From: a virus
Lineage: Duplodnaviria; Heunggongvirae; Uroviricota; Caudoviricetes
DNA length: 16,747 nt
Strand: one strand, 5' to 3'
IMG/VR virus record: IMGVR_UViG_2703718841_000001
In this document: positions 11,473-16,747 of the stretch, in pieces
Layout: every line of letters begins with the position of its first letter
How positions within the stretch are numbered: position 1 is the stretch's first letter
Program-made: the position numbers and the translations under genes
The notes under the pieces: generated by a model
What the model was told of the DNA's origin: nothing
Databases searched by the model: none
Seen by the model: the letters and a program-made list of their open reading frames with translations, nothing else

Positions 11473-12522
11473 GTGCGGGTATTACTTAGACCTGTTCTGG
11501 TGCCTGAGCTTGGGCTGGTGGTCCTTAAGCCGGGCCGTGAATCCATACAGATATTTCATAATCCTCGAGTGCTGGTGGAACCGGAACCAAAAAGCATGCG
11601 TAATCTGCCATCCGGAGTCGTTCCTGCCGTTCGCCAGCCGCTGGCGGAAGACAAAACATTGCTGCCGTTTTTTAGTAACGAACGGGTGATTCGTGCTGCT
11701 GGCGGCGTTGGCGCATTGTCCGACTGGCTATTACGTCATGTTACATCCTGCCAGTGGCCTAATGGCGATTACCATCACACTGAAACAGTCATTCACCGTT
11801 ATGGTACCGGCGCAATGGTGTTGTGCTGGCACTGCGACAACCAACTGCGTGACCAGACATCGGAATCACTGGAGCTGCTTGCTCAACAAAATCTGACAGC
11901 ATGGGTGATTGACGTCATCCGTCACGCAATAAGCGGTACGCAGGAGCGGGAATTATCTTTGGCTGAATTATCCTGGTGGGCGGTCTGCAATCAGGTGGTG
12001 GATGCACTACCTGAGGCTGTATCGCGTCGTTCGCTGGGATTACCAGCGGAAAAAATCTGCTCGGTGTACCGCGAAAGCGACATCGTACCGGGAGAGCAGA
12101 CCGCCACCAGCATATTGAAACAACGCACAAAAAATCTTGCACCGTTGCCTTACGCCCACCAGCAACAAAAATCACCACAGGAAAAGACGGTGGTAAGCAT
12201 CACCGTTGATCCAGAGTCTCCGGAATCTTTCATGAAGCTGCCTAAACGTCGCCGCTGGGTTAAGGAGAAATACACACGTTGGGTTAAGACACAGCCGTGT
12301 GCTTGCTGCGGTATGCCAGCCGACGATCCGCATCATCTGATTGGTCACGGGCAGGGCGGAATGGGAACAAAAGCACATGATCTCTTTGTGTTGCCTTTGT
12401 GCAGAAAGCATCACAACGAGCTGCATACGGATACAGTGGCATTTGAAGATAAGTATGGCTCCCAACTGGAGCTGATATTTCGTTTTATCGATCGCGCGCT
12501 GGCAATTGGCGTACTGGCGTAA
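11473..12522 (+). CDS. ydfU: YdfU-like DUF968 protein with C-terminal Cys/His (HNH-like) motif
   Basis: Track ORF 11434..12522; preferred start GTG 11473 with GGAGG 4 nt upstream, giving 349 aa. C-terminus CACCG…DDPHHLIGHG…LPLCRKHHNELH. Confidence 0.75.
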   Translation: MRVLLRPVLVPELGLVVLKPGRESIQIFHNPRVLVEPEPKSMRNLPSGVVPAVRQPLAEDKTLLPFFSNERVIRAAGGVGALSDWLLRHVTSCQWPNGDYHHTETVIHRYGTGAMVLCWHCDNQLRDQTSESLELLAQQNLTAWVIDVIRHAISGTQERELSLAELSWWAVCNQVVDALPEAVSRRSLGLPAEKICSVYRESDIVPGEQTATSILKQRTKNLAPLPYAHQQQKSPQEKTVVSITVDPESPESFMKLPKRRRWVKEKYTRWVKTQPCACCGMPADDPHHLIGHGQGGMGTKAHDLFVLPLCRKHHNELHTDTVAFEDKYGSQLELIFRFIDRALAIGVLA

Positions 12523-12535
12523 GTGGAGAACGAGC

Positions 12536-13288
12536 ATGAACCTTGAAGCCTTACCAAAATATTACTCCCCAAAATCTCCAAAATTGAGCGATGACGCTCC
12601 AGCGACAGGCACCGGTTGTTTAACAATTACGGATGTAATGGCAGCGCAGGGGATGGTGCAGTCGAAAGCACCACTTGGGTTGGCCTTATTTCTGGCAAAA
12701 GTTGGTGTTCAGGACCCTCAGTTTGCGATTGAAGGCCTGCTAAATTACGCGATGGCACTGGATAACCCGACATTGAACAAATTGAGTGAAGAAATCCGGT
12801 TACAGATTATTCCTTACCTCGTGAGTTTTGCCTTTGCTGATTACTCCAGGTCTGCGGCAAGTAAGGCTCGCTGTGAGCATTGTTCAGGTACGGGATTTTA
12901 TAATGTATTGCGCGAAGTGGTGAAACACTACAGACGCGGGGAATCTGTAATCAAGGAAGAATGGGTGAAGGAACTATGTCAGCATTGCCATGGTAAGGGC
13001 GAAGCCAGCACAGCGTGCAGAGGGTGTAAGGGTAAAGGGATTGTTCTGGATGAAAAAAGAACCCGGTTTCATGGCGTACCGGTATATAAGATTTGTGGGC
13101 GTTGTAATGGAAACCGGTTTAGTCGTTTACCGACCACGCTGGCACGACGTCATGTCCAGAAGCTGGTACCAGACCTGACCGATTATCAGTGGTATAAGGG
13201 GTATGCGGACGTCATTGGTAAACTGGTAACAAAGTGCTGGCAGGAAGAAGCATACGCGGAAGCGCAATTGAGGAAGGTGACGAGATAA
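12536..13288 (+). CDS. quuQ: Late-gene antiterminator Q (phage 21/Qin type)
   Basis: Track ORF 12506..13288; preferred start ATG 12536 with GGAG 8 nt upstream (250 aa). Cys-rich zinc-binding region CEHCSGTG…CQHCHGKG…CRGCKGKG…CGRCNGN. Lies directly upstream of a late-promoter/terminator module. Confidence 0.85.
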   Translation: MNLEALPKYYSPKSPKLSDDAPATGTGCLTITDVMAAQGMVQSKAPLGLALFLAKVGVQDPQFAIEGLLNYAMALDNPTLNKLSEEIRLQIIPYLVSFAFADYSRSAASKARCEHCSGTGFYNVLREVVKHYRRGESVIKEEWVKELCQHCHGKGEASTACRGCKGKGIVLDEKRTRFHGVPVYKICGRCNGNRFSRLPTTLARRHVQKLVPDLTDYQWYKGYADVIGKLVTKCWQEEAYAEAQLRKVTR

Positions 13289-13319
13289 ATGATTTTTGCT
13301 GAAGATGGCGACATGATGT

Positions 13320-13348
13320 TTGCATTTTTCAAAAAATATGGATAAAAT
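13320..13348 (+). promoter_or_regulatory. Candidate late promoter (PR'-like) downstream of Q
   Basis: TTGCAT (13320-13325), 17-nt spacer, TAAAAT (13343-13348). Position matches the Q-utilisation site of lambdoid phages; a terminator follows about 50 nt downstream. Confidence 0.45.
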
Positions 13349-13397
13349 TTTTTCAACGATGGGCTTTGTATACCCGACGTTAAGAAAAAGTAGAAAA

Positions 13398-13420
13398 CCC
13401 GCTGATGAGCGGGTTTTGTG
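13398..13420 (+). terminator. Rho-independent terminator (candidate tR')
   Basis: Stem CCCGCT / AGCGGG with GATG loop (13398-13413), followed by TTTTGTG. Confidence 0.7.
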
Positions 13421-13709
13421 CTTTAAATGGGGCAATGGTAATGTTGAATCTCATCCCGGGACTCATGTCTGTTAACTTATTATTTAGCTGGTGACTTGGT
13501 TATTTGCCTGATGTTTAAAATGTTTTCTTCCAGTACAATGTCCCTAAACACAATGAGTCTGCTTATTATATTATTAGCAGAGCTATTACGGCCAAAGTAC
13601 AGCATAAGCTTTTAAAGCCAATCAACCAGTCATCAAGACAGACGGGGTTATTCATAAAAACTCTCCATGTGTGATCCGATGGGGCCTGAAATTAAAGCTT
13701 TAATATAGC

Positions 13710-13922
13710 TCATGAAAGGTAAACATTGGCAGCTGAAGGGCCACGCAGACCATTTATCCGGCAAAATTCCACGCGTAATCCGGTGGTAATTTCTTCTGCA
13801 TCGCGGAGATTGAGCGCTGAAACATGAAGCTGGACATCGATACGACCATCGGATGGGGTGATAAGACCCTTGCCGCTTTTGCCGTCAAAGGTTTTGACAA
13901 TTCCTGTCATTTTACGGGACAA
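13710..13922 (-). CDS. cspF: Cold-shock-domain protein CspF
   Basis: 70-codon [47 protein letters not shown]…; CspA-family fold, divergent from cspB as in Qin. Confidence 0.85.
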
Positions 13923-14222
13923 AAAAATTCCTTAATACTGATAACTTGGCGCACTATACACACGTTCCTGAAGAAAGCTATAGTTTTTTGATGGGGTTGA
14001 AGATGGCTGGATGTCTAAAATAAACATTGCTTCATATGTTCAACTATGCGTTAATGATTGCGTCGGTTTGAAGAACAGACGATATACGAAGTAGTTTACT
14101 AAAGCAGTTCTCATTTCAGGTGTTATTCACTTATTCCTTCTTTGAGTCTCTCCAATTAAGTACGAAGTCGTTTCTGTTATGCAAACCATTTATGCCGAAA
14201 GGCTCAAGTTAAGGAATGTAGA

Positions 14223-14438
14223 ATGTCAAATAAAATGACTGGTTTAGTAAAATGGTTTAACGCTGATAAAGGTTTCGGCTTTATTTCTCCTGTTGATGGT
14301 AGTAAAGATGTGTTTGTGCATTTTTCTGCGATTCAGAATGATAATTATCGAACCTTATTTGAAGGTCAAAAGGTTACCTTCTCTATAGAGAGTGGTGCTA
14401 AAGGTCCTGCAGCAGCAAATGTCATCATTACTGATTAA
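14223..14438 (+). CDS. cspB: Cold-shock protein CspB
   Basis: 71-codon [41 protein letters not shown]…, with RNP motifs. Long 5' leader (13923-14222) shared with divergent cspF. Confidence 0.88.
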
Positions 14439-14720
14439 AATTCATCGCTCGTCTGTATACGATAACGAAGAAGGCTGATGCCTGAGTAGAGATACGGACA
14501 GAGTAGTGAATATTGGATCTCTTTAATAAAAAGTAAGGAGGTCCAATACATGAAACAATGGCTAGCATATTTGGCAAAATCTTAATCAGGAAAAGTATGC
14601 TAACCATTGTGGTGAAGTGCAGGTTTGCTGCATGAATAGTTTTACAGCAGAAGCTAACTGCTGGCATGGCAAAACAAAGTGCGTAAGTGGATGACTCCCA
14701 CAAAAAGCACCACAATCTCA

Positions 14721-14742
14721 AACCCGCTCAGGCGGGTTTTTT
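14721..14742 (+). terminator. Rho-independent terminator (possibly bidirectional)
   Basis: AACCCGC / GCGGGTT stem with short loop, followed by TTTT. About 285 nt downstream of the cspB stop and about 60 nt beyond the 3' end of minus-strand ynfU. Confidence 0.75.
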
Positions 14743-14801
14743 ATTATCTGCTTTAAATATATTATTAAAATATAAAAAATACTTGTTACTAATAAAATCA
14801 A

Positions 14802-14972
14802 TCAGGCTACAGCTTTAAGATTTGTCTGGAATACTTTGTTGCAATGAGGGCAGATCAAAAGGGCACCTTTTTGTACTCTTGAAAAACTGTGTTCTGACTC
14901 TTGGGTGCAGTTTGGGCAGGAACATTTAACGAGATAATTACGGCGTGATTTTGAGTTTTTACGTTCTGACAT
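14802..14972 (-). CDS. ynfU: Small zinc-ribbon protein (YnfU-like)
   Basis: Track ORF 14802..15023; preferred start ATG 14972 (MSERKNSKSRRNYLVKCSCPNCTQ…CPHCNKVF…, 56 aa) with AGGAAAA upstream. CxxC…CxxC zinc-ribbon pattern. Symbol from memory. Confidence 0.6.
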   Translation of the reverse strand: MSERKNSKSRRNYLVKCSCPNCTQESEHSFSRVQKGALLICPHCNKVFQTNLKAVA

Positions 14973-15191
14973 AGGCTTTTCCTGTATAAATGGCCGTATA
15001 CAGTACACTAAATATGAAAACATTTCTCGTATTATTATTTTATATATGACTTTCTTTCAAAATAATTACCCACATTTTTAATGTGTATGTTTTTTTAGCG
15101 CCGTTGAGAACAACGTGTGCTGTCAAAACTACCCCGTAGACTCCGATCTTTTCAAACATATTGCACCATCCGTGTACATCGGGGTGAGGAT

Positions 15192-15407
15192 ATGAAATCA
15201 ATGGATAAGTTAACAACAGGTGTTGCCTATGGCACATCGGCGGGTAATGCTGGTTTCTGGGCATTGCAGTTACTCGATAAAGTAACTCCGTCACAGTGGG
15301 CTGCAATCGGTGTGCTGGGTAGCCTGGTTTTTGGCCTGCTGACGTATCTGACAAATCTTTATTTCAAGATTAAAGAAGACAGGCGTAAGGCTGCGAGAGG
15401 AGAGTAA
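15192..15407 (+). CDS. essQ: Holin, phage-21 S-type pinholin with dual-start motif
   Basis: Track ORF 15117..15407; real start ATG 15192 ([18 protein letters not shown]…, 71 aa) with GGTGAGGA SD. Two in-frame starts (Met1, Met4), TM segments, charged C-terminal tail. Confidence 0.9.
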
Positions 15408-15411
15408 TCCA

Positions 15412-15719
15412 ATGACTCAAGACTATGAACTGGTTGTGAAAGGAGTCCGTAATTTTGAGAATAAAGTTACGGTAACTGTAGCCTTACAGGACAAAGAACG
15501 CTTTGACGGTGAAATTTTTGACCTGGATGTCGCCATGGACCGTGTTGAAGGAGCTGCGCTGGAGTTTTATGAGGCAGCAGCCAGAAGGAGCGTCCGGCAA
15601 GTCTTCCTGGAAGTAGCAGAAAAATTGTCAGAAAAAGTTGAGTCTTATCTGCAGCATCAGTACTCCTTTAAGATTGAAAATCCTGCCAATAAGCACGAGC
15701 GTCCTCATCATAAATATCT

Positions 15720-15723
<4 letters not shown>
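15412..15723 (+). CDS. ydfR: YdfR-like protein (DUF1327) inside the lysis cassette
   Basis: 103-codon ORF between holin and endolysin. Stop overlaps the endolysin start (ATGA). Confidence 0.8.

Positions 15724-16747
<1,024 letters not shown>

Follow-up and report, generated by a model that had tools for sequence, protein, structure and literature searches.

A covarying structured RNA in the 3′ untranslated region of the prophage cold-shock gene cspB, and an 11-codon reading frame as the probable by-product of a hairpin

Introduction

To our knowledge, the control of cold-shock genes in Escherichia coli has been explained almost wholly via 5′ untranslated regions (UTRs). Here, we analyse the 3′ UTR of the cold-shock gene cspB in a stretch of 16,747 nucleotides (nt) from a virus of the Caudoviricetes (IMG/VR record IMGVR_UViG_2703718841_000001), which we refer to as the window and whose setting is the late region of a lambdoid prophage. 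A reading made from the sequence alone had noted that the interval 14439–14742 contains an 11-codon open reading frame (ORF) behind a perfect Shine–Dalgarno sequence (SD) and ends in an intrinsic terminator, and it had proposed a leader peptide, a micropeptide or the 5′ part of a terminator-ended small RNA (sRNA). Judged by the comparison of related copies, the interval contains a covarying distal module that is conserved behind cspB-like genes across the Enterobacteriaceae, and the ORF is specific to one lineage and carries no sign of purifying selection.

The cspB locus

The genes at the locus follow the order quuQ (ends at 13288), ynfS (minus strand), cspF (13710–13922, minus strand), cspB (14223–14438, plus strand), the interval 14439–14742, ynfU (14802–14972, minus strand), essQ, ydfR, rrrQ and rzpQ. 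Positions 14000–15100 are base for base identical to E. coli K-12 MG1655, where they belong to the Qin prophage; window positions are converted by K-12 = 1655777 − window. An exact match to MG1655 is absent for the longer stretch 12000–16747, so a difference lies somewhere outside 14000–15100. The comparison with K-12 that the sequence-only reading had suggested for the cspB–essQ region yields an identical sequence over 14000–15100, and the K-12 record carries no annotation between cspB and ynfU, although the small proteins ynfU, ynfS, ynfR and ynfQ are annotated nearby. The 362 nt 3′ of cspB are present in 1640 of 5426 complete E. coli genomes (~30%), mostly at ≥99% identity, and also in several sequenced temperate coliphages. 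The features discussed below are the following.

14223–14438, plus strand: cspB coding sequence (CDS), from the ORF list and K-12 annotation b1557; its stop codon ends at 14438, and the RNA studied here is its 3′ UTR
14440–14511, plus strand: HP1, a long irregular hairpin in the minimum free energy (MFE) and centroid folds, with an internal tandem G.A-type motif ACGAWGA / CUGAGUAGA
14512–14547, plus strand: HP2, a perfect 14-bp hairpin (−16.4 kcal/mol) whose 3′ arm is the SD TAAGGAGGT; may be the stem-loop that protects the 3′ end of the cspB RNA at steady state
14550–14585, plus strand: mini-ORF MKQWLAYLAKS of 11 codons (ATG 14550, TAA 14583–14585), real in the sequence but probably no functional gene
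14551–14553, plus strand: strong in vivo RNA 3′ ends from Term-seq (PMC7815308; K-12 1641226 and 1641224, minus strand), 4–6 nt after HP2
14556–14609, plus strand: HP3, a conserved hairpin with arms 14556–14569 and 14596–14609, containing mini-ORF codons 3–11
14606–14716, plus strand: four-helix junction domain with P1 (14606–14614/14708–14716), P2 (14617–14633), P3 (14645–14663) and P4 (14687–14701)
14677–14688, plus strand: conserved junction strand AAAGUGCGUAAG, which the alignment shows together with the P3 loop AAGCUAA
14720–14745, no strand assigned: intrinsic terminator found by a scan, with an 8-bp stem at 14720–14739 (5 G-C pairs) and a T-run; used by the convergent ynfU transcript
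14802–14972, minus strand: ynfU, a zinc-ribbon small protein (K-12 annotation b4776; Pfam PF23499), convergent neighbour and member of a conserved cassette

A covarying RNA domain downstream of cspB

The 310 nt after the stop codon have a predicted MFE of −105.2 kcal/mol on the plus strand (z = −7.1 compared to shuffles) and of −86.5 kcal/mol on the minus strand (z = −4.2); hence the plus strand folds better. The fold consists of HP1, HP2, HP3, a multibranch domain closed by ATTGTGGTG / CACCACAAT, and the terminator. To collect homologues of the multibranch domain, we scanned viral contigs and bacterial genomes (one genome per species) with sequence patterns and obtained 42 distinct copies from Escherichia, Shigella, Enterobacter, Kluyvera, Kosakonia, Phytobacter, Leclercia, Raoultella, Atlantibacter, Superficieibacter and Pseudescherichia. 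The domain thus occurs in prophages, phages and chromosomes of at least 10 enterobacterial genera. In every copy with recovered upstream sequence it lies 128–221 nt 3′ of a cspB-like gene, with one clear exception that is severed by an insertion sequence (IS); in this copy (L080), the IS is inserted exactly at the 5′ edge of P1.

An alignment of 28 sequences supports the four helices of the junction. In P1–P4, 95.7% of the alignment cells are paired, compared to 23–60% when the partners are slid, and compensatory changes are found in 9 of 26 base pairs, distributed across all four helices. The covariation score was reached by none of 500 shuffles, and RNAalifold independently predicts the same four helices. 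G.U pairs occur within the domain (e.g. at the P2 base in 20 of the 28 sequences). Furthermore, there are indels of 1–2 nt inside the domain, and no ORF is consistent across lineages on either strand. The domain hence combines compensatory changes, strand-specific folding and a non-coding pattern of variation, as expected for a structured RNA. A covariance model found a single match in the window (14599–14720, 135 bits; next match 9 bits); neither the rest of the window nor other parts of Qin, such as the sequence behind cspF or cspI, gave another copy.

Two of the conserved motifs, GAAGCUAAC in the P3 loop and AGUGCGUAAG in the junction strand, served as search patterns and are thus invariant by construction. 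We therefore ascertained copies again in metagenomes, using a pattern for P2. Of the 32 true distinct copies found in this way, one differs by a single substitution in the P3 loop, and the junction motif is missing from three that have visibly decayed. The motifs AAGCUAA and AAAGUGCGUAAG thus remain conserved under independent ascertainment. The domain is also as similar to K-12 as the gene it follows: identity is 72–82% for the junction and 69–81% for the csp CDS, compared to 50–58% for the proximal UTR with SD and ORF. Matches to the distantly related phages Cyrano and PHB10 cover only ~14604–14746.

HP3 precedes the junction and shares the 4 nt at its base (14606–14609) with the P1 5′ strand. 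When 23 distinct sequences are placed in the register of its stem, 8 of 12 positions are paired in at least 91%; variation is found at positions 3, 4 and 9, and position 3 repeatedly shows C.A. The conservation of HP3 is mostly at the level of sequence. Upstream, the HP1 motif ACGAWGA opposite CUGAGUAGA is conserved: it is seen again in the Cyrano, L105 and Enterobacter-type lineages and in the 3′ UTRs of L093 and L125; in L132 the G.A-like motif is swapped for Watson–Crick ACUCC/GGAGU. From its sequence, the internal motif of HP1 could be a protein-binding or kink motif.

No Rfam 15 family matched 14430–14760 at its gathering score, nor with an E-value of up to 10. The best scores were Trp_leader (21.7, gathering score 41) and isrK (18.3, gathering score 50), which both overlap the terminator, and FourU (16.6, gathering score 60), which corresponds to HP2. 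A literature search found no paper on an RNA in the cspB 3′ UTR. We conclude from the comparative evidence that the distal module is a real RNA family without a description in Rfam 15 or in the literature that could be searched; it probably acts on the formation of transcript 3′ ends or on transcript stability.

Other identities of the region were considered. A tRNA, tmRNA or tRNA-like element was rejected: ARAGORN found none, and the geometry is wrong (a 6-bp 'D' stem, linkers of 11 nt and 24 nt, and a 6-nt spacer before the 3′ strand). There is also no similarity to the small-protein genes ynfQ and ynfR that follow cspI, of which the interval might have been a remnant. A 97-amino-acid (aa) ORF with TTG start on the minus strand (14428–14721), annotated as hypothetical in phage PhiR42_1, was rejected since ORFs differ in strand or frame or are absent between lineages and since the region has indels. 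Phage records place inconsistent 'hypothetical proteins' over the RNA, namely this minus-strand ORF in PhiR42_1 and a plus-strand ORF of 41 aa in PHB10 (L003 2950–3075; also L306 1190–1465). Such calls over a structured RNA are probably spurious. Inspection by eye for pseudoknots of the HP3 loop with the conserved loop or junction motifs, and for complementarity between HP1 and the cspB 5′ UTR, gave only matches of 4–7 nt that were inconsistent between lineages.

Some copies deviate from the common architecture through decay or rearrangement. In three Raoultella-like copies (L136, L219 and L248), the segment that joins P2 to P3 contains 8-nt tandem expansions (GAAAGCCT or GAAAGCAT), and L155 has lost P3 and the junction motif.

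The RNA is part of a cassette with the order YnfU-family zinc ribbon (minus strand), cspF-like gene (minus strand), cspB-like gene (plus strand) and the RNA, followed by a ynfU-like gene (minus strand) and/or a gene for a 75-aa protein (plus strand). The latter protein (MKKVIIFFNGKPSKVITVLKG...) has no Pfam match. The conserved cassette is carried by L125–L151 (Enterobacter, Kluyvera, Kosakonia, Leclercia and others), where the YnfU-family zinc ribbon has 56–62 aa. In several genera, it adjoins the same chromosomal gene, whose product begins MKMNPRAWFNRSRIP.... The cassette may thus be a chromosomal cold-shock island that was captured by phages. In Qin and related phages it forms a moron that separates Q/pR′ from the lysis genes. 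In phage Cyrano (OV696614, 108 kb), a cspB homologue that lacks annotation (L002 2631–2846) is accompanied by the full 3′ UTR RNA and lies between hicAB and the gene for DNA polymerase III alpha.

RNA 3′ ends at HP2

To relate the fold to RNAs in the cell, we used the Term-seq data for MG1655 under three growth conditions from Adams et al. 2021 (eLife, PMC7815308; supplementary file 1). On the cspB strand, a 3′ end classed as 'orphan' is listed at K-12 1641226 in one condition and at 1641224 in the other two, and the flanking sequence printed there agrees with our coordinate mapping. The first position (14551) is the T of the mini-ORF ATG, and the second (14553) is the first base of codon 2. 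With 6.0e5, 1.2e6 and 2.5e6 reads (PMC7815308), these ends are strong: on the same strand and sheet, sroA has 9.8e5 reads, the dapD terminator 2.4e5 and the lowest entries ~2.3e4.

The ends closely follow HP2, whose stem is succeeded by UACAUGAAAC, that is, by no U-tract. By the definition of Dar and Sorek 2018 (PMC6061677), HP2 is similar to the protective 3′ stem-loops of E. coli transcripts: it is a stable stem without U-tract and has a precise, abundant end a few nt (4–6 nt) downstream in all three conditions. It differs from these stem-loops in that a conserved structured module of 160 nt and then a canonical terminator follow.

The sequence-only reading had placed the first intrinsic terminator about 285 nt downstream of cspB, which our scan bears out (stem 14720–14739 with T-run, ~282 nt from the stop codon). 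A second match to the terminator pattern at 14617–14633 is helix P2 of the conserved domain and lacks a proper T-run. No cspB-strand 3′ end is listed at the terminator (K-12 16410xx–16411xx, minus strand) in any of the three conditions, all at 37 °C (PMC7815308). On the ynfU strand, an end is listed at K-12 1641060 (plus strand), which corresponds to window position 14717 (PMC7815308), and the terminator stem thus serves ynfU at 37 °C.

These data also bear on the earlier proposal of a terminator-ended sRNA with the ORF in its 5′ part, and they support it partly. The locus does have a structured RNA that is conserved and non-coding, and a discrete RNA end is present; this end lies at HP2 and not at the terminator, and the conserved part is the four-helix domain downstream of the mini-ORF. 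Thus, of the hallmarks of such an sRNA, the hairpin and U-tail are present, and a discrete transcript at the terminator is missing from data that cover 37 °C only and have a high listing threshold. As for a 5′ end, no conserved promoter is found, and a cut in the linker between HP2 and HP3 would be consistent with the end at 14551/14553. A candidate sRNA promoter (TTGGCA-N19-TATGCT, ending at 14601) was rejected: its '−10' is the HP3 3′ arm, the A2 is lost in PHB10 and Enterobacter types, and a promoter scan found none.

We therefore considered whether the distal module (~14553–14745, i.e. HP3, junction, and terminator with U-tail) is a separate trans-acting RNA, either set free by a cut in the linker or produced chiefly in the cold, acting as a base-pairing sRNA or sponge or by binding a protein (Hfq, ProQ, Csp or YnfU-type). 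The mapped 3′ end lies exactly at the 5′ boundary of the conserved module, which finishes in a good terminator with a U-run, and its unpaired AAGCUAA and AAAGUGCGUAAG are conserved even when they are not search patterns. Furthermore, the junction persists where HP2 and HP3 are deleted (L047) or the upstream part is severed by an IS (L080), and the cassette also encodes two cold-shock-domain proteins and YnfU-family zinc ribbons. However, Term-seq under three conditions lists no cspB-strand end at the terminator, the promoter-like sequence of K-12 is not kept, and every intact copy stays attached to csp, which fits a cis role equally well. A literature search gave no hit for its binding to Hfq or ProQ or for targets. 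The module shares with 3′ UTR-derived sRNAs (MalH, PMC8081044; autoregulatory sRNAs, PMC7398697) the position 3′ of the stop codon, the terminator with U-tail and a processing-type end that separates it from the mRNA body, but it has no listed terminator-ended species and consists of a four-helix junction instead of a seed and terminator. Overall, a trans-acting RNA is conceivable but doubtful.

The precise and abundant 3′ end, 2–4 nt from the first paired base of the module, could also be produced by the module itself, if it were a new self-cleaving or nuclease-guiding RNA that cuts its own 5′ edge and thereby makes the cspB 3′ end, in the manner of HDV-like or hatchet ribozymes, whose cleavage site is their 5′ boundary. 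The complex fold with invariant unpaired nucleotides and the carriage by mobile elements and phages would suit such an RNA. Yet the module has no similarity to any ribozyme family in Rfam 15, and two ends that are 2 nt apart look more like trimming. In addition, ligation in Term-seq requires a 3′-OH, whereas self-cleavage leaves a 2′,3′-cyclic phosphate. We hardly credit this explanation.

Two further 3′ ends lie upstream of the interval. One is located in the cspB 5′ UTR at K-12 1641634 (minus strand; window 14143). The first of three condition sheets gives it 5.7e4 reads, which makes it 10–40 times weaker than the end at HP2; it agrees with the attenuation of cspB by Rho in the 5′ UTR that PMC7815308 reports. 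The other, a strong end in all three conditions, is at K-12 1642356 (minus strand; window 13421). Just 3′ of quuQ there is a pR′-like promoter (TTGCAT, 17-nt spacer, TAAAAT) and then a terminator (AAAACCCGCTGATGAGCGGGTTTTGTGC), together spanning 13321–13421 on the plus strand. The RNA from 13321–13421, which is without K-12 annotation, looks like a short pR′-tR′ RNA of Qin, analogous to lambda 6S or StxS.

The Shine–Dalgarno motif and the 11-codon ORF

The SD TAAGGAGGT at 14534–14542 is the sole copy in the window on both strands, with an expectation of 0.04 and at least one copy in 9 of 200 shuffles. As the sequence-only reading had described, it is separated by a functional 7-nt spacer from ATG 14550, and translation from this ATG gives MKQWLAYLAKS before the TAA at 14583–14585. 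The claim that a perfect SD is unlikely by chance also holds in so far as chance would rarely give such a motif. Its rarity is no proof of ribosome binding. The SD forms the 3′ arm of HP2. In three transcript models, the SD is predicted to be more than 99% paired, with a probability of being unpaired of 0.006 at 37 °C and 0.001 at 15 °C. The 5′ arm UUGGAUCUCUUUAA resembles the 3′ tail of the 16S rRNA (UUGGAUCACCUCCUUA); HP2 therefore resembles an intramolecular SD:anti-SD duplex. The folding models thus show HP2 as a stable hairpin that holds the perfect SD as one arm.

Variation in HP2 was examined among 96 recovered copies of the Escherichia-type UTR, which represent 14 sequence variants. 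Three of four substitutions in the stem preserve pairing: changes from C to U result in G.U pairs, and a change of G14541 to A converts U.G into U-A, by which the SD is weakened. Accordingly, one of the three substitutions in the SD makes the hairpin stronger while the SD gets weaker. In the Cyrano and L105 lineages, hairpins of unrelated sequence occupy the place of HP2.

Among the same 96 copies, most retain the SD and ATG, and the encoded peptides are MKQWLAYLAKS, MKQWPAYLAKS, MKQWPAYLAIT, MKQWPAYLVIT, MKQWPAYLAKP and MKQ*, the last with a stop at codon 4. All six distinct substitutions in the mini-ORF are thus non-synonymous or nonsense (one nonsense, none synonymous). The sequence-only reading had named conservation in orthologous prophages as a test, and this test turned out against the ORF: SD and ATG are absent in the Cyrano, PHB10, L105, L129 and Enterobacter-type lineages. 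The homologous bases outside the Escherichia lineage are CGACACAACGG, TTACAACAGG or ATATCAGG, with neither ATG nor SD, so that the ATG is a lineage-specific change. In the L047 lineage, 82 nt comprising HP2 and HP3 are deleted, while HP1 and the junction are kept. By this comparison, the ORF has neither the conservation in relatives nor the bias towards synonymous changes of a translated small ORF, and by the folding predictions it also lacks an accessible ribosome-binding site.

Could the 11-codon ORF nonetheless be translated, either into a micropeptide or as a regulatory mini-cistron that remodels HP3 and P1? A perfect 9-nt SD at this spacing is rare and is mostly retained in Escherichia, and the ORF overlaps HP3, so that ribosomes would open that helix. 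Moreover, the U.G-rich pairing of the SD in HP2 recalls RNA thermometers. Like FourU and other SD-sequestering thermometers (RF01795), HP2 pairs a U-rich strand with AAGGAGG via U.G and U-A; however, its score is far below the gathering score, the 14-bp stem is far too stable for physiological melting, and it lies in a 3′ UTR with an ORF that is not conserved. The predicted pairing of the SD is even tighter in the cold, a strong 3′ end falls on the ATG, and the site has no annotation in K-12. Together with the pattern of substitutions and the absence of the ORF from all other lineages, this makes translation very unlikely, and a leader peptide or micropeptide finds no support. Most likely, the SD and ORF are an ordinary by-product of a structural hairpin, and the interval encodes no peptide gene.

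Competition between P1 and an upstream strand

The 5′ strand of P1 is complementary both to its 3′ strand and to 9–14 nt just 5′ of HP3. In K-12, this anti-P1 strand spans 14555–14561 and extends HP3. Three lineages (L105, L003 and L129) have an upstream duplex of −9 to −10 kcal/mol, a value that is matched by only 1–4% of shuffles. The module might hence be a conformational switch, i.e. a thermosensor or a sensor of a ligand or protein, in which P1 and anti-P1 set linker cleavage or terminator read-through. In line with this, structures with forced P1 are only 0.5–2.4 kcal/mol above the MFE in K-12, L093, L125 and L132, and several helices meet in a junction whose nucleotides are conserved. 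P1 covaries, yet the upstream pairing beats it in silico in most lineages; such behaviour would be expected of a switch that is stabilised by tertiary contacts, a protein or a ligand. Against a switch, the anti-P1 pairing is weak in K-12 (z = +0.4), the in silico temperature trend of P1 is inconsistent across lineages, and no alternative pairing with the terminator was found. The element is furthermore located in a 3′ UTR and not in a 5′ leader, and the independent lineages are too few for testing covariation of the alternative helix. The closest known systems here are riboswitch-type junction aptamers, which likewise have a P1 that closes a multi-helix junction, conserved unpaired nucleotides and a competing upstream strand; in contrast to these, the cspB module occupies a 3′ UTR, is not followed by a conserved ORF under its regulation, has only a weak competitor in K-12 and is not known to bind a ligand. 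We regard a switch as distinctly improbable.

Discussion

We estimate with a probability of roughly 60% that 14439–14745 is a long structured 3′ UTR of cspB, in which HP2 protects the 3′ end of the mature RNA and the distal module acts in cis on the 3′ end and stability. The cspB transcript would either be cut in the single-stranded 8-nt linker between HP2 and HP3, or be terminated downstream and then trimmed by 3′–5′ exonucleases; by either route, a stable cspB RNA would result that ends at HP2 as its protective 3′ stem-loop. The distal module would influence the choice of 3′ end and hence the stability of the cspB RNA, possibly by means of helix P1 competing with the anti-P1 strand that adjoins the point of cleavage. 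In the cold, when cspB is expressed, the full-length form that extends to the terminator may have its main importance. The boundary of the covarying module coincides with the mapped 3′ end at HP2.

Several points weigh against this interpretation. Term-seq covers 37 °C only and cspB is a cold-shock gene, so that the full-length form and the mini-ORF could come into play at 10–15 °C. The listing threshold is high (the lowest entry on the strand has ~23,000 reads), which leaves room for a minor terminator-ended species. The abundant RNA could be a stable HP1–HP2 decay fragment and not the whole mRNA. No Rho-termination region is listed at K-12 16410xx–16413xx (PMC7815308); the HP2 end may thus arise through an endonuclease, through Rho with trimming, or by another route. 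Furthermore, we infer the cis role of the distal module only from its position and its linkage to cspB, the covariation comes from ~6–8 independent lineages that are all enterobacterial, and the sequestration of the SD is an in silico prediction.

A more far-reaching version would be that HP3 and the junction (14556–14716) represent a new class of complex-fold regulatory RNA that ends mobile cold-shock cassettes. Such an RNA might sense temperature, a protein or a ligand, or be catalytic, and would choose between the short HP2-protected form and the full-length terminator-ended form via P1 and anti-P1. We consider this unlikely; if true, it would mean 3′-end-based control of a cold-shock gene. 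Among the regulatory RNAs of cold-shock genes, the cspA thermoregulator (RF01766) and other sensors in csp 5′ UTRs are comparable in that they are likewise long structured untranslated RNAs on a gene of the CspA family. The RF01766 match at this locus (14062–14454, 158.8 bits) spans the 5′ UTR and CDS of cspB. The module differs in that it is 3′ of the stop codon, resembles RF01766 in neither sequence nor structure and is confined to the 3′ side of cspB-like genes in the mobile cassette.

Conclusion

The finding touches on the annotation of small genes as well as on the cold-shock response. A textbook-perfect SD with an ATG can arise from a structural hairpin, which is relevant to the prediction of small ORFs, and a structured RNA explains the inconsistent annotation of 'hypothetical proteins' in phages at this place. 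E. coli K-12, the best-studied genome, holds a 3′ UTR fold that has neither an annotation nor an Rfam family and that is as conserved as the csp CDS. As the boundary of the module is a strong mapped 3′ end, this leads to the testable hypothesis that a cold-shock mRNA may be controlled via its 3′ UTR.

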